NCBI GenBank assembly: GCA_026417155.1
Contig: JAOADU010000021.1
Location: forward strand, 521-64,520
DNA: 64,000 bases
Origin: Bacteroidales bacterium
GTDB lineage: Bacteria > Bacteroidota > Bacteroidia > Bacteroidales > GWA2-32-17
Direction of reading: 5' to 3'
Below are positions 9,501-35,151 of this stretch, piece by piece (the first letter of the stretch is position 1; every line of letters starts with the position of its first letter). The position numbers were made by a program, and so were the translations under genes. The notes below the pieces were generated by a model that saw only the letters and a list, made by a program, of their open reading frames with translations, searched no databases and was not told the DNA's origin.

Positions 9501-11640
9501 CACAGGAAGCAAAAAGAACTATTCATATGTCAAGCAACATGGTTGGCACTATGTTACCATCACCGATTTAACAGCATGTTCATCCATAGATTCGTTTTTT
9601 GTTAAAGTTGATAGTTTAAGCATTATTCCACTATTTATCAACGATACATTAAATCTTTGCAGTGGAAATATACTTTCAATTCAGCAAACTATTCCTAATA
9701 TTACGCACTACTTTTGGAAACCAACGTTAGATACTACAAGCACTATTGTGGTCAATCAAAGCCAATATTACTCTGTAGAAATCGAAAACAAATATGGTTG
9801 CCGAAACAAAGATTCCGTCTATGTAAATATTAAAGGAATTGCTCCAATAGCACAATTTACAGCTTCGCATACTTGCTTAGGCGATACAACTATTCTTGTT
9901 AGCACCTCATATTCCATTGATACCTCTGCCATTATACATTGGCAATGGATTATCAACCAACACGACACAATACTTGGTCAGCAAACCCCATTTATATTTA
10001 CTAATTATGGAAATCAGCTAATTAAATTAATAGTTCAAACACAAAATGGTTGTAGTCAATTCGTTGAAGATACTATTTTAGTTCATCCTTTACCCAATGT
10101 TAATTTTAATGTTTCTGGATTTTGTCAGCTACAACAAACGAATTTCTTCTCTTCAGCAAGTTTGCCTTGGGGACAAGTTGTTGATTACTACTGGAATTTT
10201 GGCGACGGACATACATCCATTGACCAAAATCCATCACACATTTATGATCAACCTGGTAATTATACCGTTTCTTTTACCGCAATAAGTAATGAAGGATGTG
10301 CCAAAACTATCTCAAAACAAATAGATATTAAGTATACGCCCCATGCAGGTTTTTACTATGGAGCTTCGTGTGCTCAAAGTCCAACTTATTTTACCGATAC
10401 TAGTCGTACATTGTCATATTTCCCTATTATTCAATGGAAATGGGATTTTGGCAATGGAACTATTTCCACTTTACAAAATCCTACTTGTATATATCAACAA
10501 GCTGGAAATTATATGGCTACATTAACAATTAAAATTGCCAATGGTTGTACCGATAGTATCTCCAAACAAATAACGGTTACTTCTTCGCCTCAAGCAATGT
10601 TTACACACGACAGCGCTTGTGTACATCAACCTCTTCAGATTACCGATGCTTCTACTATTCAAAATAGTCAAATCACTAAATGGAATTGGTATGTAAACAA
10701 TCAATACTTCTCATCTAACCAAAATATTGTTCTTTATCCTCAACAAACGGGTAATATTTCTGTGTTATTAATTGTAGAATCGCAAACTCATTGCTTAGAT
10801 ACATTTTACAAAACTATACAAATAAAGCCCAAACCTACCGTTAACTTTACAGCCAATCCTAATTACGGGCCTGCTCCTCTTTTCGTTGAATTCAACAATC
10901 AATCCGAAAATGGTCAATCGTACTGGAATTTTGGCGATAATACATATTCACACATTACGCATCCAACACATATTTTCAATGATACTGGCACCTACTCTGT
11001 TTGGCTAAAACTTATTAACAATAATGGTTGTTACGATTCTATTAGCAAAATCATCTTAGTAGTTCCAAATATAAGCGACCTTTCTATTGACGATATACAA
11101 ATATTATGGCAACAACCTTACATTATTGTTTTAGCCAACATTGCAAATACTGGAACTTTGCCTATTGAAAATCCTGAATTACAACTATGGACTAATGGAC
11201 GATTTTTAGTTTCGGAAATACTTTACGACACTTTATTTTCAGGCGATAAAATTTGGTACACTTTCAATGGAAAAATTAATACTAACTATATCGAACCTCG
11301 CTTTGTTTGCATAACAGGCAATATTACTCAGCCCACTAGTGAGGTTAACTACCAAAACAATACTTATTGTAAATCTATTTCAGATGAAGAACAAATTTTA
11401 AATATTTATCCAAATCCCGTAAAGGATAAACTTATTATTGAACTTCAATCGTCCGATAATCAACCAATGTCTCTTATTATAAGCGATATTACGGGTAAAA
11501 TTTTACTCGCTAAAGATATATTTTTAAATAAAAACTTCAATCGCATTCAAATAGATGTCTCTGAACTGTCGGAAGGGATTTATTTTATTCAATTGACATC
11601 AAAAAAACTTAATTTCGTTTACAAATTTTTAAGATACTAA
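6517..11640 (+). CDS. Large T9SS-secreted surface protein: two LamG-like modules, Ig-like and PKD-like domains, type A C-terminal sorting domain
   Basis: Signal peptide MQKIIYILISTLIITSVKSSIVLAQ (ATG at 6517; the track start at 6487 is a TTG). PKD signatures include YYWNFGDGHTSIDQNPSHIYDQPGNYTVSFTAISNEGC and WKWDFGNGTISTLQNPTCIYQQAGNYMATL. C-terminal Por_Secre_tail-like LNIYPNPVKDKLIIELQS...GIYFIQLTS. Confidence 0.85.
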   Translation: MQKIIYILISTLIITSVKSSIVLAQNINFQGLNLWLRADSLVFHNSNYVYEWKDISGNNFHLTQSNSLYQPTFVPQIDSLNHLPAILFNNSYILNNQSITIGTFYIVCNYNANTFQDYCGLITQASVSDGNTDYLIVSSPGNTNFYHSILNQNLYINQNQTYNFAPLRRPKIIKGILNTPVSWNSLMIGYDRSLFTRFWNGYVFEIIIYDRTLSISEQLMVEQYIMNKYAPSVNLPNDTILTTLCPIVVKPQGYYTSYQWSTGQTSDSIVIEQSGTYYITATDIFGRQSIDSIKISFPFPNFESNRFLCPNDSIIIDTQLSETLFSFLWNDSSSQSFITVHTPGSFWVTITDSTNCIYQSDTINVSLDSFANENLLSDTVYLCRGDTLSLLTNSAIKYYWNTGDSTSFIVPLNTGSYKITAYNSNQCQNIDSCFIVIKGQKPSPQILKNNSCVNTIQSYTGNSTGNIIQWTWTFHDTIINGQIVNYSYHQPGIYSVSLYVKDTNTCHSVVSIIDTVFNTPRSSFSIIKGCNPNEFVLLSKVNHTIPIHDYIWNINGQTYYNDSLITIISNNASVSLTTVDIKGCRDTVVQIVNQNISNEVIPAQIIYPKQNQNIFKNTFFFHWNNYSQLSLLELSFNNNFNPIILRTPKSITNSYFINNLIKNRIYYGRVWTYNACHDSVATNFQFNTFLPDSIDGLTIWLRSDSEVVVNSQNKIIQWKDVSGNQHHFDTLSLAQAPYYVANIDSIGQLPSIVFNNGALVLNNTTNIGTLFIVANYKFQSFQNFSGLLTRKEVVDGNSDFFIISSASGTNLYQSILNQQMYINNQSTYNFAPLQRPKIIKGILNNPVLWGDLLIGLDRNIAGRYWQGNVWEFLSFNKALTLNEQNLIETYLMDKYAPPVSLPADTVLTSFCPFTIKPKGYFTSYLWNTNDTSDSITVTKSGKYIITATDIFGRISKDSMIVTFPQTNIPDTIVICYGDSSLVTSALGNLVDYYWSTGSKKNYSYVKQHGWHYVTITDLTACSSIDSFFVKVDSLSIIPLFINDTLNLCSGNILSIQQTIPNITHYFWKPTLDTTSTIVVNQSQYYSVEIENKYGCRNKDSVYVNIKGIAPIAQFTASHTCLGDTTILVSTSYSIDTSAIIHWQWIINQHDTILGQQTPFIFTNYGNQLIKLIVQTQNGCSQFVEDTILVHPLPNVNFNVSGFCQLQQTNFFSSASLPWGQVVDYYWNFGDGHTSIDQNPSHIYDQPGNYTVSFTAISNEGCAKTISKQIDIKYTPHAGFYYGASCAQSPTYFTDTSRTLSYFPIIQWKWDFGNGTISTLQNPTCIYQQAGNYMATLTIKIANGCTDSISKQITVTSSPQAMFTHDSACVHQPLQITDASTIQNSQITKWNWYVNNQYFSSNQNIVLYPQQTGNISVLLIVESQTHCLDTFYKTIQIKPKPTVNFTANPNYGPAPLFVEFNNQSENGQSYWNFGDNTYSHITHPTHIFNDTGTYSVWLKLINNNGCYDSISKIILVVPNISDLSIDDIQILWQQPYIIVLANIANTGTLPIENPELQLWTNGRFLVSEILYDTLFSGDKIWYTFNGKINTNYIEPRFVCITGNITQPTSEVNYQNNTYCKSISDEEQILNIYPNPVKDKLIIELQSSDNQPMSLIISDITGKILLAKDIFLNKNFNRIQIDVSELSEGIYFIQLTSKKLNFVYKFLRY
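6610..7410 (+). repeat. Internal duplicated module A (LamG-like + Ig-like) of the 1707-aa protein
   Basis: LNLWLRADSLVFHNSNYVYEWKDISGNNFHL...HLPAILFNN...FAPLRRPKIIKGILNTPV...EQYIMNKYAPSVNLPNDTILTTLCPIVVKPQGYYTSYQWSTGQTSDSI...ITATDIFGRQSIDSI aligns colinearly with module B. Confidence 0.8.
8602..9418 (+). repeat. Internal duplicated module B (LamG-like + Ig-like)
   Basis: LTIWLRSDSEVVVNSQNKIIQWKDVSGNQHHF...QLPSIVFNN...FAPLQRPKIIKGILNNPV...ETYLMDKYAPPVSLPADTVLTSFCPFTIKPKGYFTSYLWNTNDTSDSI...ITATDIFGRISKDSM. It lies about 2.0 kb downstream of module A. Confidence 0.8.
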
Positions 11641-11641
11641 T

Positions 11642-13285
11642 ATGTATTTACTTTTAGCTACTTACAATCAACATAAGTATAAAGAAATGTTAGAGTTAAT
11701 GCCTTTTTCGGTACAACTATCTTCTTTAACACTCGACCCTATTCCCTTAAAATCTATCGACGAAACAGGTCAAACATATGAAGAAAATGCACTCATAAAA
11801 GTACGCACAGTAGCAAAATATAAACCCTATACAGCCATTATAGCCGACGACTCTGGATTAGAAGTCTTCGAACTCAACGGACAACCCGGCGTATACTCTG
11901 CTCGATATGCAGGCGACAAAGCTACCGATAACGACAATATACAAAAATTACTTCATGAACTTAACGGCAAAACTAATCGTCAAGCTCAGTTCAGATGCTG
12001 TATTGCATTTAGATATTTAAACGAAGAGCATATATTCGAGGGCATTTGCAAAGGAAGCATAATAGAAGAGCCACGCGGCACCAATGGCTTTGGATACGAC
12101 CCTATTTTCATACCTGAAGGGTATCATCAAACATTTGCCGAAATGCCACAAGAACTTAAAAATAAAATTAGCCATCGTGCCATTGCTGTACAAAAACTTA
12201 TTCAATTTCTAGAAGAAAATAAATTTATTTACAAACCTTTGCAATTTAATCATTCCCAAGGAACTACTAATATTTATTTTGATACTCTTTCGAACTTTTT
12301 GCATTATAAAAAAGATCAACGCAAAGTTTTTATTATCGATAAATCTATTTATAATATTTATAATGATAATTTTAAATACCTAGAAGAACCCGTTTTATTG
12401 ATAAAAGCATCTGAGAAAAATAAATCGCTAAAAACGGTTAAAAAAATTTTCGATTTTTTTTATGAAAACTCTGTTGATCGAAATACTAATGTTTTCGTAA
12501 TTGGTGGTGGCGTTACAACCGATATGGGAGCTTTTGCTACTTCAACATGGAAACGAGGCTGCAGGTTAACGCTTATACCTACTACTGCTATGGCAATGGT
12601 AGATGCCTCCATTGGTGGAAAAACCGCTATAAATTTTAAACACACAAAAAACCTTATTGGTACTTTTTACCAACCCGAAGCTATTTTAATTGATATTAAC
12701 ATTTTCAATAATTTGCCACAAGAATATTTAGAACAAGCTTTTGCTGAAATAATAAAACATGCTATTTGTTTCGACAAACAATATTTTCATGCTTTATTAA
12801 ATGAAGCCAAAACTCGTTATGCTCCCGAAGGTATAAGATTTTATGTTGATGATATAAAAAAAAGTATTGAAATTAAACTAAACATCGTATTACAAGACAC
12901 AGAAGAAAAACATATGCGAAAATTATTAAATTTTGGACATACTGTTGGACATGCTATCGAAATGGCTTACAATTTACCCCATGGCAAAGCACTTTATAGA
13001 GGAATGATGCTCGAATTAAAAACTTTTATTAAAATGGGTTATTGTAACGAAGATGTTTTACATAAACTTTTTTCTATTTATAATGGATATTTTATTTTAT
13101 ATAATTACCCACGTATTTCTTTCAAGAAAATTAAGCATTACATCTTACAAGACAAGAAGATTAACAACGACTTTATTATACTGCCCATCATTAAAGACAT
13201 AGGCACTACAGAGCTATTAAAAATTAACAAGTCTGAATTTTTAAAAACACTGAAACTTGTTATTGATGAAACATATAAAAGTTAA
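11642..13285 (+). CDS. aroB: Fusion protein: RdgB/HAM1 non-canonical purine NTP pyrophosphatase (N-terminal) + 3-dehydroquinate synthase AroB (C-terminal)
   Basis: N-terminal half: LATYNQHKYKEM, DDSGLEVFELNGQPGVYSARYAG, FGYDPIFIPEGYHQTFAEM...KNKISHRAIA (RdgB). C-terminal half: VIGGGVTTDMGAFATSTW, IPTTAMAMVDASIGGKTAINF, LLNFGHTVGHAIE (AroB). It is one uninterrupted 547-codon ORF. Confidence 0.8.
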   Translation: MYLLLATYNQHKYKEMLELMPFSVQLSSLTLDPIPLKSIDETGQTYEENALIKVRTVAKYKPYTAIIADDSGLEVFELNGQPGVYSARYAGDKATDNDNIQKLLHELNGKTNRQAQFRCCIAFRYLNEEHIFEGICKGSIIEEPRGTNGFGYDPIFIPEGYHQTFAEMPQELKNKISHRAIAVQKLIQFLEENKFIYKPLQFNHSQGTTNIYFDTLSNFLHYKKDQRKVFIIDKSIYNIYNDNFKYLEEPVLLIKASEKNKSLKTVKKIFDFFYENSVDRNTNVFVIGGGVTTDMGAFATSTWKRGCRLTLIPTTAMAMVDASIGGKTAINFKHTKNLIGTFYQPEAILIDINIFNNLPQEYLEQAFAEIIKHAICFDKQYFHALLNEAKTRYAPEGIRFYVDDIKKSIEIKLNIVLQDTEEKHMRKLLNFGHTVGHAIEMAYNLPHGKALYRGMMLELKTFIKMGYCNEDVLHKLFSIYNGYFILYNYPRISFKKIKHYILQDKKINNDFIILPIIKDIGTTELLKINKSEFLKTLKLVIDETYKS

Positions 13286-24040: not shown

Positions 24041-27022
24041 CTATTCGTCAATTCTATTTCCTTGACTATCAAAGCGAATTACTTTAATTTTTCTTGATTT
24101 TTCAATAATATAGAAAGGCATAAATAAATTATCGAATTTATCGTCAATATTAATTTCAAAATGATTCTGTAGCAATTGTAAACGATTGCCTAATATACTT
24201 TCATCCATGCTTAATGTATATTTGCCAGCAGGTAAATATAACTCATAATATCCGTTCTTATCGGTCAATGCAGTATAAACTTTATGATTGCTCGCTACAA
24301 TTTTTATACGAGAAACATCTAATTTAAAGTCGGCTGTAGGAGAGTTAGGATCTCGCTGAATAAATACTTTTCCTGTAATTTTTACACCTCTAATGAACGG
24401 AATATCTACCACAGTATTTTTGTTTACCACTAAAGTGTCGCTTATATTGGGAAACCATCCTTTTAAATCAACTATCGAAAATGCTGTAATTGAATAAACT
24501 CCTAAAGGTATATTTTTAAGTACACATTCGCCTCTTTCGTTTGTCATCACTTCCCATCCGTTTACACGAATAACCACATTTTCGAGTACTGTTTCATTTG
24601 CATCACGCTTAGCATTTCCGTTAATATCATAATATGCTTTAAAGGTTATAGTTCCATGGGTTGGTTTTACAAATGGCACAGGAATTCCAAATTCCTTTCG
24701 CACACCTAATCCTATGTAAATATTATGGGTCCAAGTAGGTTCTTTTATCTCATTTTCAGGATTATTCATGAAATAATAATAATCGGGCAAAATATTACGA
24801 CTATCCTTTGCAAAATTTATTTCTGTAAATATTCTAAAACGCCATCCAGATCGGGTAAAATACATCATTTCTGGTGTAAAATTTATCTGATTGCCACTTA
24901 AAGTACTATATGAATAACTAACTAATTGCTGATATATAAATGATGGATTTTTAAACTGATGCTGATAACGACTGCTTAAACCGATAGATTGAGGATTTTT
25001 TCGGCTCTGATTGAAAAATGATTGTTTTGAAAAATTAAGATTGCCCAGTGTATAACGCAACATAAAGGAAATGGTTCGATATTGTACAAATAAGGCTGTT
25101 TGTGTAAAAAAATAATCGTTGCTCAATGTATCCATGGCTCGGTTATAACCACTTCGAATATTGAAGAATGAACGAATATTTTTTTCTAAGTTGTAATTAC
25201 TAACATTAAAACCCACGCCCCTTGAATGCACATCAAAATTCATAGAACGTGAAGCATGATAGAATAAAAATGGATTGTAAAATAAGCCATTTCGGTTTGT
25301 ACGAGTTACATTTAACTGATTATTCAACAAATAATTAGTATAAAGATTTGAAAATACTTGTGTTTTATATCTATAAAAATTATTTTGTAGTTGAATGTTC
25401 CATACTTTTTTTAGCACAACATTATTTGACATATTAGCTACAATCCGTTCGTTTTTAAAAATTCCAAAATTGGGAGAGGTATAATTTCCGTTTAAATGCA
25501 AATGCCAAATATTTTTTATAGGACTTCCTGAATAATAGGCACCAAGCATGTACCCCATTTTAATATAATTAGAATCGTTTTGCACGCTTCGAGTACCACC
25601 TATGCGTAACCCAAAGGTATGATATTTCAATGCTTTTACTGAGATATTTGATTGTGCTGCATCAATAGTTGTATTTGTATTTTGGTTAATACTTCTGCCT
25701 AAAATTGTATTGGTTCTAATAATTTTATTTTCGAAGTAATGATTTATTCCAAAACTATAAATTTTTGGCATAAAACGAAAAAGCTCAGGCGAAGCAATAT
25801 AAAAAGCCCCTACTCTATGATTTCTGGTTATGTAATACTCACCACGCAGCCCTTTGCCATTCTGATAAGTTCCAAGCAATCCTGAACTAATGTTGCCCAA
25901 CATTACATAAAACTTTCTATGATAGTATGCTAGCGAATAAACAGCATTTTCGTATGGAATAGTTGTAAAATAATTCGAAAAATAAGTCAATTGTGTTTGA
26001 TACATTAGCAACGAACTATCTTTTAAAAACATATCGCCTCTTAAATGTAAGGTCATCATCGGTTGTTGTCCCAAAATATTAAAGATATTTGCATCTAAAA
26101 TTAAAGGAACAGTAACTGCACCATATTTATTAACTTCCCAAGAATCTGATAACTCAACAAAATCGATACTATTCCCTGTTCTAAATTTTCTTTTCTCGCT
26201 CGGATTTGGCGAAAAACTATTAAAATTTAGCTTATATTTTTTAGCTTCACCTGTAGTTCCTGGACGATAATCTTCTACATCTATTAATTTAAAATTTCTG
26301 GGTGTTTGAAATTTATTAAATGTATAATAGAATTCTGTATCAGCAAATGCAGGTAATGTTACAGCAATTGGAAATTTTACTTCTTTATCGTTTAAAGAAT
26401 CTTTAATTAATACATCTTTTCTAAAACTACTTGCTTGCAATATAATATCCTGCTCTTCTGTTGATTCGTTAATAATTCCTACCCTGAATGGCATTGACGT
26501 AGTGTTATGTGGCAAATAATATTTATTTTCGGAAACTGTTAATGCCCACCGAATATTTTTTTTCAATAATCCATAAAAATAATTCGTCCCTAAATGGTTG
26601 CCTTTCTCATCTGTAATAAAGGCATGAAACATAAATCTTGTATTCCCTTTAAATTTTTCTCGTGGAATTATATGAACCGGAACAATTAAACTATCACCAA
26701 CTTCAATTTCGTACAATTTATGATTTTTTGCTATTACTTTCCATTCAACTGGTATAGTATAATCTATATATATTTTTAATTTTTCAGAAGAAATATTTGT
26801 AACAACTAACACATTAGCAATTAGTTCACCTTTTTGAAATTCTACAACTTGCTGTAAAAACCGTGTATGAATTTTTCCATTATTGTTGCGTAGATTATTT
26901 GAAGATGTTAATGTATTGTTAGGCGACTTTAGAGTATCTGTTTCTTGCGATATTGCCGCAGAAAAAATTAATAAAATAATTATATGAATTAATATTATTT
27001 TCAAACTTTTACGGTATTTCAA
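24041..27022 (-). CDS. 993-aa predicted outer-membrane protein: N-terminal Ig-like region, central beta-barrel-like region, C-terminal CarboxypepD_reg/SdrD-B-like domains (usher-like candidate)
   Basis: TTG start with signal peptide KYRKSLKIILIHIIILLIFSAAISQE. The 14-nt overlap with the upstream gene suggests coupling. Residues about 320-770 are rich in alternating aromatic/polar strands (e.g. YSLAYYHRKFYVMLGNIS, GAFYIASPELF, FTQTALFVQYRTISFMLRYTLGNLNF). C-terminal YYDINGNAKRDANE...VIRVNGWEVMTNERGECVLKNIPLGVYSI and TDKNGYYELYLPAGKYTLS. Confidence 0.7.
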   Translation of the reverse strand: MKYRKSLKIILIHIIILLIFSAAISQETDTLKSPNNTLTSSNNLRNNNGKIHTRFLQQVVEFQKGELIANVLVVTNISSEKLKIYIDYTIPVEWKVIAKNHKLYEIEVGDSLIVPVHIIPREKFKGNTRFMFHAFITDEKGNHLGTNYFYGLLKKNIRWALTVSENKYYLPHNTTSMPFRVGIINESTEEQDIILQASSFRKDVLIKDSLNDKEVKFPIAVTLPAFADTEFYYTFNKFQTPRNFKLIDVEDYRPGTTGEAKKYKLNFNSFSPNPSEKRKFRTGNSIDFVELSDSWEVNKYGAVTVPLILDANIFNILGQQPMMTLHLRGDMFLKDSSLLMYQTQLTYFSNYFTTIPYENAVYSLAYYHRKFYVMLGNISSGLLGTYQNGKGLRGEYYITRNHRVGAFYIASPELFRFMPKIYSFGINHYFENKIIRTNTILGRSINQNTNTTIDAAQSNISVKALKYHTFGLRIGGTRSVQNDSNYIKMGYMLGAYYSGSPIKNIWHLHLNGNYTSPNFGIFKNERIVANMSNNVVLKKVWNIQLQNNFYRYKTQVFSNLYTNYLLNNQLNVTRTNRNGLFYNPFLFYHASRSMNFDVHSRGVGFNVSNYNLEKNIRSFFNIRSGYNRAMDTLSNDYFFTQTALFVQYRTISFMLRYTLGNLNFSKQSFFNQSRKNPQSIGLSSRYQHQFKNPSFIYQQLVSYSYSTLSGNQINFTPEMMYFTRSGWRFRIFTEINFAKDSRNILPDYYYFMNNPENEIKEPTWTHNIYIGLGVRKEFGIPVPFVKPTHGTITFKAYYDINGNAKRDANETVLENVVIRVNGWEVMTNERGECVLKNIPLGVYSITAFSIVDLKGWFPNISDTLVVNKNTVVDIPFIRGVKITGKVFIQRDPNSPTADFKLDVSRIKIVASNHKVYTALTDKNGYYELYLPAGKYTLSMDESILGNRLQLLQNHFEINIDDKFDNLFMPFYIIEKSRKIKVIRFDSQGNRIDE

Positions 27023-27656
27023 CTAAACAAAAATGAATTTTAATTTGATATGTTCCAGGTCTTAAAGTAAACCCTGGTATAATTCTGTAATCTATGGTAA
27101 AGCTATATTCATTATAATTCGTTAAGTAGCTTCCTGCTCCATTCGTAGGGTTTAATGAATTGCAAGTGCCCGCTGGATTAATATTTGGCAAACTTGGTAT
27201 TATATCTAAAATATCGTATTGATTGTTTCCTGCAAATATTTGAAATGTACCACTACTCACAGGAGTCCCGCAACCATTATAAACTTTTACTTGAATTAAA
27301 TTTAATTCAGGAACATTTCCAGCACTTCCATAAGTATTTAAAACTTCCCACTGATTGGGGGGTAAAGTATTATTATTATCAATGTACATCAACAAACGCC
27401 ATTTACAACTTCCCGGATTTATCTCATCTATTCGCAAACGAAGCTGTGTTGCTCCACTAATAGTTTGCCCACTTATATACTTTTTTATATCAGAAAATAC
27501 AAAATCAACATTACCTGGAGTTGTCATATAAAATCGGCTTGTACCGCTTATAGCATCAGAACAATTTGATGTCACGGGATTTGTACAAACCTGTGCATGT
27601 AAATTATTAATGCATAAAAATATTATAATAAAGGCGATATTACTAACTCTTCTCAT
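27009..27656 (-). CDS. Secreted 215-aa protein, paralog of the 258-aa protein (candidate minor/tip subunit)
   Basis: Signal peptide MRRVSNIAFIIIFLCINNLHAQ. Shares MTTPGNVDFVFSDIKKY and YSFTIDYRIIPG...RPGTYQIKIHF with the upstream paralog. Cys-rich, unlike the paralog. Confidence 0.7.
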   Translation of the reverse strand: MRRVSNIAFIIIFLCINNLHAQVCTNPVTSNCSDAISGTSRFYMTTPGNVDFVFSDIKKYISGQTISGATQLRLRIDEINPGSCKWRLLMYIDNNNTLPPNQWEVLNTYGSAGNVPELNLIQVKVYNGCGTPVSSGTFQIFAGNNQYDILDIIPSLPNINPAGTCNSLNPTNGAGSYLTNYNEYSFTIDYRIIPGFTLRPGTYQIKIHFCLVEIP

Positions 27657-27666
27657 ACCTTATACT

Positions 27667-27701
27667 AATAAAGGGTTAGCTTTATTTGCTAACCCTTTAT
27701 T
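27667..27701 (-). terminator. Strong stem-loop between the two subunit genes (intrinsic terminator/attenuator candidate)
   Basis: 14-bp perfect stem (core AAAGGGTTAGC / GCTAACCCTTT) with a 7-nt loop. On the minus-strand transcript the GC core is followed by UUUAUUAGUAU. Confidence 0.55.
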
Positions 27702-27715
27702 TTCTAATTTATCTA

Positions 27716-28492
27716 CTATTGATCTTCGAGTAAAATGTATTTAACATTCATGGTATAAACACCTGGCTCAGCATATGTATTTGGCCCATTCACTGTAACA
27801 ATATCTTCGGCTGTTCCATCATTCAAACCAGCATTGGGGAATATAGCTGGCAAACCAGGTAAAATGCGATAATCAATAGTAAAATAGTAATCGCTGAAAG
27901 TACCTGCAGGTGCAATAGCAGTTAAGTAACTTCCACCGGGAGCACCTTCGCCTGCATTTGTTCCAAACTGACCCTGAATGTATTTTTGATCAACACCAGG
28001 AGTAGTGTAAGGTGTTGCACTATACCAAATGCTATTAACACCCACTGCCAAGGTTTGTGCAGGAGCAAATGGATTGCTATAATCGGTTTGAGCACCAGTG
28101 GCCGTTGGATCATATTGGTTAGGTTCGTACTGACGTAATTCTAATGCACTTAATGGAATTTGATTAATTGAATTAGCGCCACCACCATTGCTATAAGAAA
28201 CTTGTTGATCCCAAAACTGACCATTTTGAGAAGTTCCTACAGCATACAAATCCCAACTAACAGATGAAGATACTTTTAGGATTGTTGCAGCATACTTAAT
28301 AATACCACCATAGTAATCTTTAATTTCATCGAACACAAAATCAATTTGATCCGATGTAGTCATGTGGAGTTGCAATACAGGTTGCAGATCCATGGTTACT
28401 GTTACATTCTTTTCGTCAATTAACTGGCCGAATGTTAAGCCACTAAGTAGGAAAATTCCTACAAACAAACTTAAAACTTTTTTCATAGACAT
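27716..28492 (-). CDS. Secreted 258-aa protein (candidate major subunit)
   Basis: Signal peptide MSMKKVLSLFVGIFLLSGLTFGQ with no lipobox Cys. The mature N-terminus has an alternating stretch NVTVTMDLQPVLQL. MTTSDQIDFVFDEIKDY and YYFTIDYRILPG...EPGVYTMNVKY are shared with the 215-aa paralog. No T9SS C-terminal domain. Confidence 0.7.
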   Translation of the reverse strand: MSMKKVLSLFVGIFLLSGLTFGQLIDEKNVTVTMDLQPVLQLHMTTSDQIDFVFDEIKDYYGGIIKYAATILKVSSSVSWDLYAVGTSQNGQFWDQQVSYSNGGGANSINQIPLSALELRQYEPNQYDPTATGAQTDYSNPFAPAQTLAVGVNSIWYSATPYTTPGVDQKYIQGQFGTNAGEGAPGGSYLTAIAPAGTFSDYYFTIDYRILPGLPAIFPNAGLNDGTAEDIVTVNGPNTYAEPGVYTMNVKYILLEDQ

Positions 28493-28699
28493 AAAATTTA
28501 GTTAGACATAAGGTTTTATAAAATTTTTAAAAATACATTATTTACTTTGTAACTAAACGAAGCGAAGTTACCACGCTTTCTGCAAATCCATCCTTGATGT
28601 TTTTGCAGAGAAAAAATCATTTGCTTCCTTTCAATTATTAACATTTGTTTTAGGGTTAATTCTATGCCTTTATACTTAATAATCATAAAAAAGTTTCAA

Positions 28700-29545
28700 T
28701 TATTTAATTTCAAAATCTGCTTGTGCTGCTATCATTTCTTCGGCATCACCAAAATCTACCACACCCACAGCAGTATATTTACCAGGCAATAACTCGTTTG
28801 GCAAGTCTATTTTAAATTCTCTGATAAATTGAGGCAAAATGGTAAACCTTTTTACATTTACTTTTTTCTGTTCACCCGTTTGTAAATTTGTTAATGAAAT
28901 ATACGAACTACAAAAACTTATCCCATCTCCGACGTTTTTGACCTTCAAGTCGAAATATTTTTTACCTTCCTTATCAACAAACTGAAATTTTTCAATATTA
29001 ACCTTATTAGTTTTCACGTTAGGTGGGTTCTGATAAATATAAACACCAAAACCAATGGAAGGTAAAATACCCATTGCCAAACGGTTAGGATGTGGTTCCA
29101 AATCAAGTGGCGATCTTTCTACAACTTGATCAATTGTTACAATTGTCCATAATGCCTTATACATATCGGCACTATCTGGAATACTTATTGTTAATTTTAC
29201 TTTTATCTCTTCACCAGGCTTTAATTCGAAATAACTAGGTGCTACGCTTATATATCTCGATAAACAATATTTGCATTGTGAGGGTTGTGGAGCAACGGGC
29301 TTACCCTGAGGATTCATCTCAAAATCGTTAAAACCCACATTAAATCGATAATTTTTTTTTGTATCGTTTTTTACTTTAATTTCCTTTGTAACACTTGTAC
29401 CGGGCTTAATATTTAAGTGCATACTCGAGGGAGAAACTGCAACTCCCATATCCTGAAATGCAGAATCGGGAATAGATGGTCGTTGTTGTGCTGTAACTAC
29501 TATAACTGTGAGAAGGAAAAGCATTGTTAGACATTTGTTTTTCAT
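28700..29545 (-). CDS. Secreted two-domain Ig-like protein (periplasmic chaperone-like candidate)
   Basis: ATG at 29545 gives the signal peptide MKNKCLTMLFLLTVIVVTAQQ. Two halves have the pattern of beta-sandwich domains: VAVSPSSMHLNIKPGTSVTKEIKVKNDTKKNYRFNV and NIEKFQFVDKEGKKYFDLKVKNVGDGISF...LPGKYTAVGVVDFG. Confidence 0.65.
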   Translation of the reverse strand: MKNKCLTMLFLLTVIVVTAQQRPSIPDSAFQDMGVAVSPSSMHLNIKPGTSVTKEIKVKNDTKKNYRFNVGFNDFEMNPQGKPVAPQPSQCKYCLSRYISVAPSYFELKPGEEIKVKLTISIPDSADMYKALWTIVTIDQVVERSPLDLEPHPNRLAMGILPSIGFGVYIYQNPPNVKTNKVNIEKFQFVDKEGKKYFDLKVKNVGDGISFCSSYISLTNLQTGEQKKVNVKRFTILPQFIREFKIDLPNELLPGKYTAVGVVDFGDAEEMIAAQADFEIK

Positions 29546-29591
29546 ATTCAGCAATTTATGCCCTTTTACGATAATATCATTATTGTAGTTA

Positions 29592-29722: not shown

Positions 29723-29842
29723 ATGGAAACCTTAAAAGAAGAATGGGAAAGTCCTGCTATTACAGAAATTTCTATTAAAGATGCAAAAGGTGGAGGTTAT
29801 ACCTTTGACGATGGAGACCTTGCTCCATCATTGAGTGCATAA
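29723..29842 (+). CDS. 39-aa upstream small ORF (METLKEEWESPAITEISIKDAKGGGYTFDDGDLAPSLSA)
   Basis: Found by manual translation; it is below the track length cutoff. It starts at the first ATG after an in-frame TGA at 29681. Its stop TAA overlaps the ATG at 29842 of the adhesin reading frame (TAATG). It sits directly downstream of a good promoter match. Confidence 0.35.
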   Translation: METLKEEWESPAITEISIKDAKGGGYTFDDGDLAPSLSA

Positions 29843-29868
29843 TGTTTAATAACCTAAATTTTTTAACT

Positions 29869-32800
29869 ATGAAAATATTTTGTTTTTTTATCGGATTATT
29901 TGTTTCATGTGCTTTATTTTCCCAACGAAACGATTTATTATGGTTAAAACATGTTACAGGGGTTGGTAATAGCATCCCTACAGCTATTGTAATTGATGCC
30001 GCAGGAAATCATTACATTGCGGGAAATTTTACTACAACCATTAGTGTCGAATCCAATAATTATACTTCTGTAGGCGGACAAGACATTTATGTAATAAAGT
30101 ATAATAATCAAGGACAAGCACTCTGGACTATCACGATTGGAGGAACAAGTGCCGAAAATGTTAATGGGCTAGCATTAAGTCCCGATGGAAGTTTTTTATA
30201 TGTAGGCGGTCAATTCCAAAGTGCAAGTTGTAGTTTTGGTTCTACTAATCTCTCAACCTCCGGAGTAAATGATGTTTTTCTTGCAAAATATCAAACCTCT
30301 AATGGAAATTTAGTCTGGGCTATAAAATCGGCCTATGGAACAAATCAACAATTAGTAGGAAATTTAACTGTCGATCCTTCGGGCAATATAGTACAAATTG
30401 GTAAATATATTGATAATGTAACTTTTTACGGAGGCACTGTAACGCTAAATTCTCCTTTTGTAGGTATTCAGCAAAATTATGTTTCAAAATTCGATCAAAA
30501 CGGTAATTTAATTTGGGCAAAACAATTTACCGGCGATAACTCTAATAGTTATATTCGAAATGTAAGTGCCGACAACAACTATTATTATTTCAGTGGTTTA
30601 TATGCTGGAACTTTTAACTTAGATGCAAATGTTTTAAATAGTACTAGCAACACAAGAGACATGATTTTATTTCGCACCGATTTAAATGGTAATGTTCAAT
30701 GGTACAGAAAAGTAACTGGAACAGGCGAAGATTACATCATTCGACATCATACCGATTTTTCTAGTTTTCAATATGTAACAGGTTATTATTCTAGCCCAAC
30801 ATTAACAATAGATTCAACAGCCACAGTTACTTCTTTAAAAAATTGCCCAAATGTAGGAAGCAACGATATATTTACAGCGTGTTATTCGTATGATGGAACA
30901 CTACAATGGGTTAGAGCATATGGATCTACTGGTAGCGATCTTGGTCTTGGAGTTTTTGCCAATGCCGACCACGTTATTTTCACAGGTTCTTATACAGGAA
31001 ACATTTCGTTTGGCTCATTTAATTTAACCAATAGTTCTACCGACGCTTATATGCTCGAAACAGACCGAAATGGGAATGTGTTAGGCGTAAATCGTGGATG
31101 GGGAACAAACACAGAAAGCTGTGAAAATGGTACTATCGATGCTAATAATGCAAACTTGTTTGTTGGCTCATTTAATTCCACTACATTTAATCTTTCTAAT
31201 AAAACTCTTACAAATCCATCGGCAGCAACGTACGATATGTTTTTCGCAAAATTTGGTCGTATAATTCTGACATTTAATGTAACCAACAACTTGTGTTACG
31301 GTGATGCCAATGGAAGTATCGATTTAACTGTTTCGGGCGATGGATTGGCACCGTACTCCTATCAATGGTCTGGACCTTATGGATTTACATCAAACAATGA
31401 AGATATATCAAATTTGCCAGCCGGATGGTATAAGGTAACCGTTACCGATGCAAATAATATTAAAAAAATAGATTCGGCTTATGTTGCCGAAGGAAATGCT
31501 ATTTTATTGGTTTTCAATACTACTAATACCAGTTGTTATGGAATACACGATGGTTCTATAGATTTAAGTGTTAGTGGTGGTGCTTCACCATATTCGTTTG
31601 TTTGGTCAACCGGTCAAAATACCGAAGACATTACTGGTTTAATGCCTGGTACGTACTACGTCACCGTTACCGATGCTAACATGTGTACTACAACTGGTTC
31701 ATCAACAATTACTTCACCAGCAGCTCTTAATATCATTGAAGTCATTTCTCCTCCATCGTGTGTGCCTGGAAATGATGCATCAATTGATATAACAGTATTA
31801 GGCGGAACTGCTCCTTTTTCATTCCTATGGTCAACAGGAAGTACAACTGAAGATCTTTCATCGCTCAGCGTAGGATCATATTCTGTTACGGTAACCGACT
31901 TCAATAATTGTACAATAAGCAAAACTTTTCAAATTGTTAATCCTTGGGCGCCTACCATTTCTGCTATTGTCAATGCTCCTTCATGCTCGCCCGGAAATGA
32001 TGGAAGCATAGATGTGATTATTAGTGGTGGCACTATTCCTTACTCTTTTATATGGAATGATGGAGATATTAATGAAGATAAATTTAATTTATCAGCTGGC
32101 ACATATAGTATAACAGTTACTGATGCCAATAATTGTTCGGCTGTTAAATCAAATATTATTGTACCAGTAAGTAATCCACCATCATTATCATATATTGCAA
32201 AAAAACCTTCGTGTAATCCTGGAAGTGATGGAGAAATTGATTTAATCGTTTACAATGGAACCATGCCATTTACTTATCAATGGAATAATGGAGCTACTAC
32301 TCAAGATATCAGTGCACTTATACCAGCTCAATATTCGGTTACTGTTAGCGATAGTAAAAATTGTACAGCAACATTAACTATTCCATTAACCATTGATTCA
32401 CCATTAGTTAGCATAACATACAATGGGAATACAACCTTTTGCCAAGGAAATACGTTAATGCTATATGCAACCAATAGCAATGGTTTTTCGTTCGAGTGGC
32501 AACTAAATGGTAACAGTATAGCAAATAGCAACGTACCTGTTTGGGCTGCCAATCAAACAGGGAACTATTCTGTGGTAGCAACAAATGCATCTGGCTGTAA
32601 AGGCTATTCAAATACTGTTTCTATTAATGTTTTACCTAATCCTACTATTACCATTAATGCCTCATCTAATTTTATTTGTGAGGGAACACCTGTATTATTA
32701 ACAGCTAATGGAGCCTTGAACTATGTATGGAGCTCGGGCAGTACACAAAACCCTATACAAGTACAACCATCTTCAACTACAACATACACCGTAACCGGAA

Positions 32801-35151
32801 CCGATGCTAATGGTTGTAAAAATACTGCTCAGTCTACTATTACAGTTAATCAAAAACCAGTTATTTCTGGAATCGTTAACAACGAAAACTGCAACAATGG
32901 CAATGGTAGTATAAACATTACCGTAACAGGTGGACAAACTCCTTATTCTTACTCTTGGTCGAATGGTGCTACTACCGAAGATATTTCAAATTTAAACGAT
33001 GGTACTTACACTGTAACAGTTACTACAGCATTTAACTGTACACAAACTTACTCTGCAACTGTACTTCCATTTATACCATTACAAGCTTCCATAAATACTC
33101 ATTCATTAATTATATTCTGCCAACAAATCCCTAATGGCGAAGCTCATGTTGTTGCTTCAAACGGGAAATCGCCTTACACATATCAATGGTCGAATGGAGT
33201 AAATACTTCATATAATACACAAATTGGTGTAGGCACTACTTATGTAACAGTTACCGATCAATGCAATCATACAGTAGTCGATTCGATAAAAGTTACTTCT
33301 TTGCCTCCGTTACAAATACAAATCACTTCTTCTGAACCAGCAACCTGTCTTACTTCGGCCGATGGAGAAGCAACAGTTGTAACCATAAATGGTGTCCCAC
33401 CGTTTACCTATGCTTGGTCAAATTCAAGCAATACTACTCCAAATGTAAACAATTTACCTGTTGGAATGCAATATGTTACCGTTACCGATGCTTGTGGCTC
33501 TAAAGTTGATTCCGTATTAATTGATCATTTACCATCTATGCAAGCATCTATTCTTTATTTTACTCAAGTTAGTTGTAGTGGAGCAAATGATGGTTCTGCT
33601 GCTGTTTCTATTTTAGATGGCGTACCACCATTCAGCTATCAATGGTCGAATGGCGAAACGACAGCTACTGCTACCCAGCTTTCCGAAGGTTTTCATGCCG
33701 TAACAGTTACTGATGCTTGCGGATGGACAACCTTATCAGTTACAATAACTGCTCCAACGCCTTTGAATATAAACATTACCGATTCTTCTGCCGCATCTTG
33801 TTCAAATATTTCTGACGGAACGGCTTTTGTAACAGCTATAAATGGCACGCTTCCCTACACATATCTTTGGTCGTCGGGCGAAACAAATTCTAATGCTACT
33901 CACTTGAGTGCTGGATGGAACTATGTTACTGTAAGCGATGCTTGTACTACACTCGTCGATTCTGTATTTATCACAATAGTGCCACCATTATCTGCAAGCA
34001 TTTCATTTATTAACGATGCTACATGTAAACACACTAATGATGGAAAAGCTTTTGTAATTACCGAAAATGGAGTACCACCTTTCCAATATACTTGGTCAAA
34101 TTCAACAAGTACATCAAATACAGCATTAGATTTACCCGTTGGATGGAACTACGTTACTGTTTCTGATATTTGTACAACAATTAAAGATTCGGTTTATATT
34201 GGTTATCGTCCACCATTAAATCCAGTTTTAACTGTAACACCATCTAAATGTAGCTTTGATAGTTCTGGTTCTGCATCCATTCAAACATTTTTTGGCGTTC
34301 CTCCCTTTAATTATCTATGGAGCACTTCATCTACCGATACTGCTATTTATAATTTACCAGTAGGCAATTATTCTGTAACCATATCAGACTTTTGCAATGA
34401 TACTGTGATCACATTCAATGTTACACATCAAAAACCTCTCAGCATATCTATTGTAAAAAACAATCCTACATGCTATAAGCTATCTAATGGTTCAATAACA
34501 CTAATTGCCGAGAATGGAGTTCAACCCATATCATATAGCTGGGCAAACCATACTTCTACAAATCCTACTTTACCATCACTCTCGGCAGGGTGGTATCGCT
34601 TTACAGTTTCCGATTATTGTATAAGCATTATAGATTCAACATTACTTACAGAACCTTCGCCATTGGGTATAATTACAAACATTACTGATGCAACCATGTA
34701 TTCCATCAATGATGGAAGTATAGAAATTACCACTGTTGGAGGGACACCGCCTTATCAATATCAATGGTCGAATAATCAAACAACTGAAGACATAAACAAT
34801 TTATTACCTGGCAATTACTACTTAACAATTACCGATATTCATCAATGTCAATTCGTTGATACATTTTACGTTGGTTATAAAGCATCGTTTATAGAAATAT
34901 ATAACGCATTTACCCCTAACGGTGATGGCAAAAACGATGTTTGGAACATTAAGAATATTGAACATTTCCCGAATTGTGAAGTTGTTGTTTACGACCAATG
35001 GGGTGTAAAAGTCTTTGAATCTGATGGATATACCAAACCGTGGGATGGTACGTACAAAGACAAACCACTCCCTGCTGGGGTTTATTACTATGTTATTGAT
35101 TTGAAAAATAATGAAAAAGCAATTACTGGTTCATTAACAATTTTAAAATAA
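29869..35151 (+). CDS. Giant SprB-repeat adhesin-like protein with beta-propeller (SBBP-like) N-terminal region and T9SS type B (gliding-motility-associated) C-terminal domain
   Basis: Signal peptide MKIFCFFIGLFVSCALFSQ (ATG at 29869; alternative coupled ATG at 29842). About 14 repeats of the form C-x-G-x-x-[DN]G-S-I...GG-x-x-P[YF]-x-[YF]-x-WS (e.g. LCYGDANGSIDLTVSGDGLAPYSYQWSG). C-terminal AFTPNGDGKNDVWNI...VYDQWGVKVFE...WDGTYKDKPLPAGVYYYVI. Confidence 0.9.
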   Translation: MKIFCFFIGLFVSCALFSQRNDLLWLKHVTGVGNSIPTAIVIDAAGNHYIAGNFTTTISVESNNYTSVGGQDIYVIKYNNQGQALWTITIGGTSAENVNGLALSPDGSFLYVGGQFQSASCSFGSTNLSTSGVNDVFLAKYQTSNGNLVWAIKSAYGTNQQLVGNLTVDPSGNIVQIGKYIDNVTFYGGTVTLNSPFVGIQQNYVSKFDQNGNLIWAKQFTGDNSNSYIRNVSADNNYYYFSGLYAGTFNLDANVLNSTSNTRDMILFRTDLNGNVQWYRKVTGTGEDYIIRHHTDFSSFQYVTGYYSSPTLTIDSTATVTSLKNCPNVGSNDIFTACYSYDGTLQWVRAYGSTGSDLGLGVFANADHVIFTGSYTGNISFGSFNLTNSSTDAYMLETDRNGNVLGVNRGWGTNTESCENGTIDANNANLFVGSFNSTTFNLSNKTLTNPSAATYDMFFAKFGRIILTFNVTNNLCYGDANGSIDLTVSGDGLAPYSYQWSGPYGFTSNNEDISNLPAGWYKVTVTDANNIKKIDSAYVAEGNAILLVFNTTNTSCYGIHDGSIDLSVSGGASPYSFVWSTGQNTEDITGLMPGTYYVTVTDANMCTTTGSSTITSPAALNIIEVISPPSCVPGNDASIDITVLGGTAPFSFLWSTGSTTEDLSSLSVGSYSVTVTDFNNCTISKTFQIVNPWAPTISAIVNAPSCSPGNDGSIDVIISGGTIPYSFIWNDGDINEDKFNLSAGTYSITVTDANNCSAVKSNIIVPVSNPPSLSYIAKKPSCNPGSDGEIDLIVYNGTMPFTYQWNNGATTQDISALIPAQYSVTVSDSKNCTATLTIPLTIDSPLVSITYNGNTTFCQGNTLMLYATNSNGFSFEWQLNGNSIANSNVPVWAANQTGNYSVVATNASGCKGYSNTVSINVLPNPTITINASSNFICEGTPVLLTANGALNYVWSSGSTQNPIQVQPSSTTTYTVTGTDANGCKNTAQSTITVNQKPVISGIVNNENCNNGNGSINITVTGGQTPYSYSWSNGATTEDISNLNDGTYTVTVTTAFNCTQTYSATVLPFIPLQASINTHSLIIFCQQIPNGEAHVVASNGKSPYTYQWSNGVNTSYNTQIGVGTTYVTVTDQCNHTVVDSIKVTSLPPLQIQITSSEPATCLTSADGEATVVTINGVPPFTYAWSNSSNTTPNVNNLPVGMQYVTVTDACGSKVDSVLIDHLPSMQASILYFTQVSCSGANDGSAAVSILDGVPPFSYQWSNGETTATATQLSEGFHAVTVTDACGWTTLSVTITAPTPLNINITDSSAASCSNISDGTAFVTAINGTLPYTYLWSSGETNSNATHLSAGWNYVTVSDACTTLVDSVFITIVPPLSASISFINDATCKHTNDGKAFVITENGVPPFQYTWSNSTSTSNTALDLPVGWNYVTVSDICTTIKDSVYIGYRPPLNPVLTVTPSKCSFDSSGSASIQTFFGVPPFNYLWSTSSTDTAIYNLPVGNYSVTISDFCNDTVITFNVTHQKPLSISIVKNNPTCYKLSNGSITLIAENGVQPISYSWANHTSTNPTLPSLSAGWYRFTVSDYCISIIDSTLLTEPSPLGIITNITDATMYSINDGSIEITTVGGTPPYQYQWSNNQTTEDINNLLPGNYYLTITDIHQCQFVDTFYVGYKASFIEIYNAFTPNGDGKNDVWNIKNIEHFPNCEVVVYDQWGVKVFESDGYTKPWDGTYKDKPLPAGVYYYVIDLKNNEKAITGSLTILK
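31273..34872 (+). repeat. SprB-repeat array (protein-level tandem repeats of about 75-80 aa), interrupted by Ig-like domains at about 32390-32870
   Basis: Recurrent ...NGSI.L.V.GG..PY.Y.WS.G.T.....L..G.Y.VTVTD...C... units read from the translation. Confidence 0.85.

Follow-up and report, generated by a model that had tools for sequence, protein, structure and literature searches.

We analyzed a 64,000-nucleotide (nt) stretch of contig JAOADU010000021.1 from a Bacteroidales bacterium (assembly GCA_026417155.1; G+C ~32%), referred to here as the window, and focused on a four-gene cluster on its minus strand that encodes a candidate surface-fiber assembly system. Its co-directional open reading frames (ORFs) occupy positions 24041–29554, and as read from the window sequence all four encode secreted proteins. 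They comprise a chaperone-like gene (28700–29554; 284 amino acids [aa] from a TTG start, 281 aa from the ATG at 29545), the gene for the major fiber subunit (27716–28492; 258 aa, with a mature protein of 236 aa), the gene for a Cys-rich paralogue of that subunit (27009–27656; 215 aa), and the gene for an usher-like outer-membrane protein (24041–27022; 993 aa from a TTG start). If this TTG start is used, the 993-aa ORF shares 14 nt with the 215-aa gene; NCBI models the protein at 987 aa.

Each of the four proteins begins with a signal-peptide-like N terminus, and the likely cleavage sites—AQ↓QRP, FG↓QLID, HA↓QVC, and IS↓QETD—each leave an N-terminal Gln. Cyclization of such a Gln to pyroglutamate is a known habit of secreted Bacteroidota proteins. 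Reading of the sequences revealed no lipobox in any of the four, and none matched a type IX secretion system (T9SS) C-terminal domain in Pfam or NCBIfam. An earlier note on this DNA, made from the letters alone, had described four co-directional minus-strand genes for secreted proteins lacking both a lipobox and a T9SS tail, and we recovered all four ORFs where it had placed them.

The 258-aa protein matched a fiber of published structure. In phmmer searches it aligned with the protomers of the TLP-1a/b fibrils (PDB 9ikk/9ikj) at E = 4.8e-47 and 1.4e-46 over residues 2–234 of 236, and the profile of its family matched 9IKK and 9IKJ at E = 1.9e-66 and 2.2e-65. An AlphaFold2 (AF2) model of the protein (predicted local distance difference test [pLDDT] 89) agreed with 9ikj at a template-modeling (TM) score of 0.86 and a root-mean-square deviation of 2.6 Å (E = 4.6e-21); the remaining PDB fold matches found by Foldseek, to CfaB, TasA, CS20, and PapA/PapH, all had E ≥ 0.02. 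On this evidence from sequence and predicted structure, we assign the 258-aa protein to the TLP-1a/b protomer family. The family comprises 964 clusters at 90% identity, all annotated “hypothetical,” and no Pfam or NCBIfam model matched the 258-aa protein or any of 113 relatives.

TLP-1a/b are 8-nm tubular fibrils with a 15-Å lumen that were recovered from filtered water of the Tsinghua Lotus Pond and resolved by cryogenic electron microscopy (cryo-EM) (Wang et al., PNAS 2024, CryoSeek, PMC11494351) at 3.2–3.5 Å. In these fibrils the β1 strand of protomer n+4 completes the immunoglobulin (Ig)-like fold of protomer n, an arrangement known as donor-strand exchange, with a rise of 11.5 Å and a twist of 75° (PMC11494351). 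An n/n+4 exchange at this rise and twist implies that the tubule consists of four separate strand-exchanged chains. The CryoSeek authors proposed “uncharacterized bacterial pili”; they could not name the species, neither metagenomics nor mass spectrometry gave them a matching sequence, and their paper gives no organism and no gene neighborhood and mentions chaperone/usher only in its reference list (PMC11494351). Our literature search, which did not extend to most subscription journals, found nothing tying TLP-1 to a gene cluster, an usher, or Bacteroidota. The fiber system that the earlier note had called “possibly undescribed” is thus not so in one respect, since the structure of the fiber was published in 2024 as an orphan; the other part of that description, a divergent chaperone-usher-like system, is supported by the analyses below.

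Similarity to TLP-1 is pronounced in the strand that mediates exchange. Residues 2–20 of the mature 258-aa protein are identical to the TLP-1a/b donor strand at 16 of 19 positions; the alignment sets LIDEKNVTVTMDLQPVLQL against LISEQNVTVTMDLQPVLQL from residue 2, directly after the signal-peptide cleavage site, and the deposited TLP-1a/b chains start where the mature 258-aa protein starts. The first 20 mature residues, QLIDEKNVTVTMDLQPVLQL, encoded at 28367–28426 (minus strand) and predicted to form β1, show the strongest conservation of any 20-residue window in the family (first among 217; entropy 0.27 versus 1.17 elsewhere). Next in conservation are mature residues 41–60, 181–200, and 221–236, two of which probably correspond to β2 and β7, the strands that line the TLP-1 acceptor cleft. 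A donor-strand role had been suggested for NVTVTMDLQPVLQL when the sequence was first read, and homology bears it out: The same segment is the exchanged β1 in the TLP-1a/b cryo-EM structures. These comparisons establish the identity and fold of the subunit, together with donor-strand exchange in its homologues.

The resemblance to SCPU/Csu-type pilins that had also been suggested did not hold up. Neither the 258-aa nor the 215-aa protein matched PF05229 (SCPU) or a related fimbrial Pfam model at E ≤ 1, and at that threshold 0 of the 113 relatives of the 258-aa protein matched PF05229, DUF4402, or Fimbrial.

We next turn to the 993-aa protein, whose AF2 model was built on 25 homologues (pLDDT 79.3, with the barrel mostly at 85–95). 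The modeled order is a signal peptide, two N-terminal β-sandwich domains (residues ~49–245; positions 26288–26878), a predicted barrel of ~26 consecutive strands (residues ~304–781; 24680–26113), and two C-terminal β-sandwiches of prealbumin/CarboxypepD_reg-like type (residues ~789–975; 24098–24658), all on the minus strand; the limits of the N-terminal domains and the barrel were taken from DSSP assignments of the model. A single short helix lies in the barrel region (residues 666–675). The model predicts the β-barrel that the earlier note had proposed and matches the domain layout it had read around it, with an Ig-like N terminus and a CarboxypepD_reg/SdrD-B-like C terminus.

Fold comparison placed this architecture with the ushers. 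Against the PDB, the seven best Foldseek matches were all FimD (E = 2e-14 to 3e-11; ~800 aligned columns; TM-scores 0.28–0.39), followed by PapC (E = 9e-11). TonB-dependent receptors, LptD, AlgE, and porins appeared at 1e-6 to 1e-5, about eight orders of magnitude weaker than the ushers, in keeping with the earlier expectation that the protein would not fall into an unrelated family of that kind. The N-terminal domains of the model matched Ig domains of the ASH/Cep192 type.

Sequence comparison gave a different picture from fold comparison. The Pfam Usher model (PF00577) matched 0 of 25 family members at E ≤ 1, and an hhalign comparison of the family with five Escherichia coli ushers was not significant (E = 0.2). 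In sequence searches of the PDB, the single 993-aa and 284-aa sequences returned chance-level matches only, and the profile of the 993-aa family returned nothing. Neither the 993-aa protein nor the 25 members matched the Pfam Plug, TonB_dep_Rec, LptD, or POTRA domains; sub-threshold C-terminal matches to CarboxypepD_reg, SpaA, and SdrD_B occurred in 22–25 of the 25. Comparison of the terminal domains with the chaperone and subunit families by hhalign was not significant and gave no sign of chaperone derivation, and no natural fusion of the usher with the chaperone or the subunits occurred among the long family members. As modeled, the 993-aa protein has an usher-like fold and domain order and is not a sequence member of the usher family.

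The family is large, with 252 clusters at 50% identity in an exhaustive profile search (E ≤ 1e-30), and many usher-like relatives are 1150–1560 aa long (P0363, P0267, and P0271; 6617–10144 of locus L001). In some of these, the C-terminal domains are followed by a SPOR domain of the peptidoglycan-binding type (P0363, 34.5 bits), and others have Lys/Arg-rich N-terminal extensions of 470–610 aa. The SPOR domain of the long forms implies that the C-terminal end of the 993-aa protein is periplasmic, as in ushers; from the model, both the N- and the C-terminal β-sandwich domains are predicted to be periplasmic.

The 284-aa protein scored 27.9–28.3 bits against the Ig-like Pfam family WxLIP_PGBD (DUF916; cut-off 27.3) and gave sub-threshold matches to MSP, ASH, and Cep192 of the PapD-like clan. 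Among 66 relatives, WxLIP_PGBD was matched by 57, PapD_N by 13 (best E = 9.8e-5), and WxLIP_HBD (DUF3324), in the second half, by 5; PapD_C was not among the listed Pfam matches of the protein and these relatives. The Joint Genome Institute (JGI) names one homologue “P pilus assembly chaperone PapD.” We predict from these profiles that the protein is built of two β-sandwich halves of the DUF916/WxLIP_PGBD type. The Ig fold anticipated in the earlier note is upheld to the extent of profile matches, with DUF916 above its cut-off and PapD_N and other PapD-like-clan matches below threshold in members of the family.

An hhalign comparison of this family with six E. coli chaperones was colinear over both domains (192 columns) and not significant (E = 0.075); the same nonsignificant alignment sets the invariant GFGVYIYQNPP opposite the G1-strand/hinge motif ..IKLFYRP. 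The protein has no C-terminal transmembrane helix or anchor and ends in ...AAQADFEIK with no hydrophobic tail. From its context and weak homology, we infer a chaperone role. Separately, the second half of the family (residues ~205–275) gave a weak, repeated profile match to synaptotagmin C2 domains (E = 1.3e-4), which probably reflects general β-sandwich similarity.

The remaining gene encodes a second pilin-like protein. The 215-aa and 258-aa proteins are paralogues, as had been noted from the N- and C-terminal motifs they share, and pairwise BLASTP connects them at E = 8e-10. Both carry a mature N-terminal segment of ~21 residues ahead of the shared M[TS]T..DF.F motif. The earlier claim that only the 258-aa paralogue has an extra mature N-terminal stretch is therefore incorrect, and the two differ in the nature of the segment, not in its presence: It is almost invariant and of β-strand type in the 258-aa protein, and reads Q-x-C-x7-C in the 215-aa protein. 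The 65 orthologues compared have Q-x-C-x7-C in place of the donor strand; they also share four further conserved Cys positions (in CKW, YNGC, AGSC, and FCLVE) and keep the C-terminal motif Y.F.IDYRI.PG....PG.YQ held in common with the major subunit. The 215-aa gene always adjoins the usher-like gene.

These features suggest that the 215-aa protein is probably a minor, tip, or cap subunit that would accept a strand without donating one. By the logic of chaperone-usher assembly, a subunit that accepts but cannot donate a strand would be incorporated first, at the distal tip. PapH-type terminators are likewise single-domain paralogues encoded beside the major subunit, and the 215-aa protein consists of a single pilin-like domain with no separate adhesin domain; it could on these grounds act at the base, as a terminator or anchor like PapH, or as a periplasmic regulator of assembly. 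A terminator must donate its strand to the last-added subunit, however, and the 215-aa protein has Cys-x7-Cys where the invariant donor strand would be, and it keeps the acceptor-side motif at its C terminus, which fits a strand acceptor. We consider a basal or regulatory role rather unlikely and a place as a strand-accepting minor subunit the probable one.

The intergenic regions add a regulatory feature. A hairpin with a 14-bp stem and a 7-nt loop (27667–27701, minus strand) lies in the 59-nt gap after the stop codon of the major-subunit gene, with a predicted RNA folding energy of −20.4 kcal/mol (z = −6.2). Of 82 related loci, 81 carry strong hairpins no more than 90 nt from the subunit stop codon (median −24 kcal/mol, z −4.9); the hairpins differ in sequence between loci, many are followed by a T-run, and they are kept after the major-subunit gene in all variant gene orders. 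A similar arrangement is found after papA and fimA. The hairpin is probably a terminator, an attenuator, or a transcript-stabilizing element. Upstream of the subunit gene, the 207-nt spacer that separates it from the chaperone-like gene (28493–28699, minus strand) may, judging from the sequence, hold a promoter or leader for the major subunit. Rfam contained no family matching the spacers of the cluster, and a scan with a sigma-70-type promoter model, which does not cover Bacteroidota promoters, found no enrichment.

Conservation of the cluster was examined in 83 related loci by tblastn, with adjacency judged only where the contig was long enough. Wherever a locus includes sufficient flanking sequence (~75 of 83), all four genes lie side by side, an outcome that passes the check on synteny suggested in the earlier note. 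The loci show three gene orders: The usual one is chaperone, major subunit, Cys-rich subunit, usher, and in the variants the chaperone-like gene stands between the subunit genes or after the usher-like gene (L017, L019, L062; L025, L027–L030). Flanking genes differ and are unrelated from locus to locus. Identity across loci is highest for the major subunit (54–89%), intermediate for the chaperone (36–81%) and the Cys-rich paralogue (33–84%), and lowest for the usher (28–71%). The usher-like architecture is accordingly found in strict synteny with the subunit genes.

When one genome was scanned for each GTDB species, the major subunit turned up in 179, almost all of them from Bacteroidota, with carriers among the Bacteroidales, Flavobacteriales, Vicingaceae, Crocinitomicaceae, and Salibacteraceae. 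Pseudotenacibaculum haliotis KCTC 52127, with its locus at ~138.6–153.3 kb of NZ_JBHULH010000004.1 (L039), is among the cultured carriers. The metagenomic relatives nearest to TLP-1a (50–56% identity) are encoded in the same four-gene cluster. We also looked for the exact source organism of TLP-1a and rejected the best candidates, which are these same metagenomic relatives, at only 50–56% identity. Contigs of metagenome-assembled genomes labeled Chlorobiota, Bifidobacteriaceae, and “Chitinophaga pinensis” carry the cluster as well (L049, L062, L075); the Bifidobacteriaceae-labeled case looks like misbinning, and the Chlorobiota case could be real, given the FCB (Fibrobacteres–Chlorobi–Bacteroidetes) group, or a gene transfer.

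Two kinds of neighboring gene were recorded beside the cluster. In the window, a divergent plus-strand gene (29842–35151) encodes a 1769-aa secreted protein in which numerous Cys-containing modules, each of ~75 aa, are arranged in tandem and which has a C-terminal tail of gliding/T9SS type. L113 likewise encodes a large T9SS-tailed protein immediately upstream of its cluster, and L003 encodes one at a distance of ~5 kb upstream, but L001 does not; the association is probably coincidental. L001 holds the relative closest to TLP-1a (52% identity) among the loci outside the metagenome scan; there, the usher-like gene is directly followed (10155–12966) by genes that encode a peptidyl-prolyl isomerase of FKBP type and a WG_beta_rep protein, and an FKBP-repeat protein is found near the cluster in L090. 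These neighbors may be accessory folding factors.

Taken together, the cluster is likely the biogenesis locus of a TLP-1-type pilus assembled by a chaperone-usher-type pathway, and it is probably the assembly machinery that has been missing for TLP-1. The divergent chaperone-usher-like fiber system envisaged in the earlier note is in this respect supported, and the checks of fold, barrel, Ig match, and synteny did not refute it. The following scheme integrates the evidence, with the roles of chaperone, usher, and Cys-rich paralogue being inferred ones. As read from the sequence, Sec would export all four proteins and signal peptidase I would cut them, leaving an N-terminal Gln. By homology, the 258-aa major subunit would have an Ig-like fold that lacks one strand, to be supplied by the almost invariant strand at the N terminus of another subunit. 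The 284-aa protein would cap the open groove of the subunit in the periplasm, and its capping strand may be the invariant GFGVYIYQNPP at the end of the first domain.

At the outer membrane, the fold similarity to FimD and PapC suggests that the 993-aa protein would receive chaperone–subunit complexes on its periplasmic β-sandwiches and catalyze strand exchange, with the growing polymer passing through its barrel. The Cys-rich paralogue, with its disulfide-type N terminus, would enter first and occupy the distal tip, and the 258-aa protein would then form the shaft. If the homology to TLP-1 extends to the assembled product, this would be an 8-nm tubule with a 15-Å lumen. The hairpin would probably set a high ratio of major subunit over the products of the downstream genes, as in the pap and fim operons.

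Several points weigh against this scheme. Sequence comparison places neither the 993-aa protein nor the 284-aa protein in the usher or PapD families, as the nonsignificant alignments above indicate (hhalign E = 0.2 and 0.075). The TM-scores to FimD are low (0.28–0.39), the predicted barrel counts ~26 strands instead of 24, and it shows no insertion large enough for a plug: The DSSP string contains no stretch of ~80 residues between barrel strands, and a plug formed by residues ~246–300 or by a terminal domain is possible. Low TM-scores are expected when multidomain models with mobile domains are compared, and the similarity is one of architecture, not of close superposition. A single usher that extrudes one chain does not explain the four-chain TLP-1 tubule with its n+4 donor. 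Four chains could arise from several ushers working together, from a cap that templates them, or from lateral association once the chains are exported, and the Cys-rich paralogue could be such a cap. Fibers that polymerize by donor-strand exchange with neither chaperone nor usher do exist, for example TasA and the archaeal cannulae (PMC12518558).

The last point supplies the main alternative to the chaperone-usher-type pathway. The subunits could self-polymerize by donor-strand exchange in the manner of TasA or the cannulae, with the barrel acting as no more than a pore for export or an anchor. The DUF916 protein would then be a structural or anchoring partner, a role proposed for WxLIP in Firmicutes, instead of a donor-strand chaperone. 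Such a reading would suit the 284-aa protein, which scores best against WxLIP_PGBD, a family whose characterized role is the binding of WxL proteins and peptidoglycan; it would also suit the lack of sequence membership in the PapD and Usher families, the four-stranded TLP-1 architecture, which is hard to reconcile with one-chain extrusion, and the precedent of chaperone-free polymerization (PMC12518558). A subunit with an open groove must nevertheless cross the periplasm of a diderm without polymerizing early, which is the task of a chaperone, and WxLIP proteins are themselves predicted to insert a strand into a WxL partner, a chaperone-like behavior (PMC10599100). The 284-aa protein, moreover, has no transmembrane helix or anchor and strictly co-occurs with the subunits and the barrel, and in fold comparison the barrel protein comes closest to ushers, which share its domain order, and not to generic porins. 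On balance we regard self-polymerization as unlikely.

A final alternative, that the four genes are functionally unlinked and the 993-aa protein is a TonB-dependent- or LptD-type transporter unrelated to the fiber, could draw on the appearance of both classes among its Foldseek matches (1e-6 to 1e-5) and on the frequency of CarboxypepD_reg at the N terminus of Bacteroidota SusC-type proteins, and is highly improbable, largely refuted already by strict adjacency in every locus with enough DNA amid differing flanking genes, and further opposed by the C-terminal rather than N-terminal position of these domains in the 993-aa protein, the missing TonB_dep_Rec and Plug matches in it and its family members, and the margin of about eight orders of magnitude by which ushers outrank transporters.

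The chaperone-usher-type pathway, if correct, has consequences beyond this locus. This locus and ~180 species-level genomes place the orphan TLP-1 structure in Bacteroidota, and the locus supplies a candidate assembly machine together with at least one cultured carrier, P. haliotis KCTC 52127. Catalogues of chaperone-usher pili cover Proteobacteria, Cyanobacteria, and Deinococcus-Thermus, and the pili known from Bacteroidota belong to type V. Finding an usher-type pathway there, with components that sequence does not reveal, would extend both the range and the diversity attributed to chaperone-usher systems, three large protein families now without a name could be annotated by function, and the manner in which an usher could make a four-chain tubule becomes a mechanistic question.

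A broader generalization can be framed: that Bacteroidota own a widespread chaperone-usher-type pathway, unrecognizable by sequence and absent from Pfam and NCBIfam, which builds TLP-1 with a machine different in kind from the one-chain Fim/Pap ushers, and that WxLIP proteins are donor-strand chaperones. We offer it tentatively and lean slightly against accepting it whole. WxLIP proteins consist of two perpendicular Ig-like domains, and insertion of one of their strands into the WxL partner has been predicted (PMC10599100). That predicted insertion into the WxL domain, considered with the present cluster, raises the possibility that WxLIP proteins act as donor-strand chaperones of a monoderm fiber or surface-complex system; a chaperone of DUF916/DUF3324 type would then link monoderm WxL clusters with diderm usher systems.

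Comparison with characterized systems locates the cluster more closely. With the Fim/Pap chaperone-usher pili it shares Sec-exported subunits that have an incomplete Ig-like fold and an N-terminal donor strand, a predicted two-domain Ig-like periplasmic protein, a large predicted outer-membrane barrel with periplasmic β-sandwiches at both ends, clustered genes, paralogous subunits, and the hairpin after the major-subunit gene. Its proteins differ from those of Fim/Pap in having no detectable PF00577 homology and no PF00345 match above threshold, and the usher-like protein differs in its ~26 strands, the absence of a visible plug insertion, and two N-terminal domains in place of one. The subunit, at ~236 aa, is larger than typical pilins, and the phylum is Bacteroidota. 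Fim/Pap pili exchange strands between n and n+1 within a single chain, whereas the homologous TLP-1 exchanges between n and n+4 within four.

The type V pili (FimA/Mfa1) are likewise Bacteroidota fibers polymerized by strand exchange. Their pilins are lipoprotein precursors processed by a protease, with no usher. In contrast, the proteins of this cluster have signal peptides of the signal peptidase I type, an N-terminal donor strand, and an usher-like partner; Pfam returned no match of FimA or Mfa type for the paralogues or the 113 relatives of the 258-aa protein. The distinction from type V pili drawn in the earlier note is confirmed by signal peptides that end FG↓QLID and HA↓QVC and contain no lipobox.

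With the archaic (sigma) pili of the SCPU family (Csu, CupE), the cluster has in common thin, strand-exchanged fibers and divergent systems outside the Enterobacteriaceae; the CryoSeek authors themselves compared TLP-1 with CupE (PMC11494351). It differs in that the subunit model matches chaperone-usher pilins weakly in Foldseek (E ≥ 0.02). The WxLIP proteins of Firmicutes resemble the 284-aa protein, which passes the DUF916/WxLIP_PGBD cut-off and has some relatives matching DUF3324; the 284-aa protein differs from them in having no C-terminal transmembrane helix and in being encoded in a diderm beside an outer-membrane barrel. No WxL proteins are encoded nearby, and the WxL Pfam model matched neither paralogue nor any of the 113 relatives of the 258-aa protein.

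The cluster thus belongs neither with type V pili nor with WxL clusters, SCPU/Csu systems, or TonB-type transporters. It also stands outside the classical, alternate, and archaic chaperone-usher clades, because the usher-like protein is not a member by sequence, the PapD-family matches of the chaperone-like protein and its relatives stay below threshold, and n+1 exchange is not what is found in the homologous fibril. The TLP-1a/b fibrils came from freshwater, their source organism was never found, and their protomer is not the same protein as the 258-aa subunit; the two nevertheless are ~40% identical over the whole mature chain, share the same mature N terminus, and have nearly identical donor strands.

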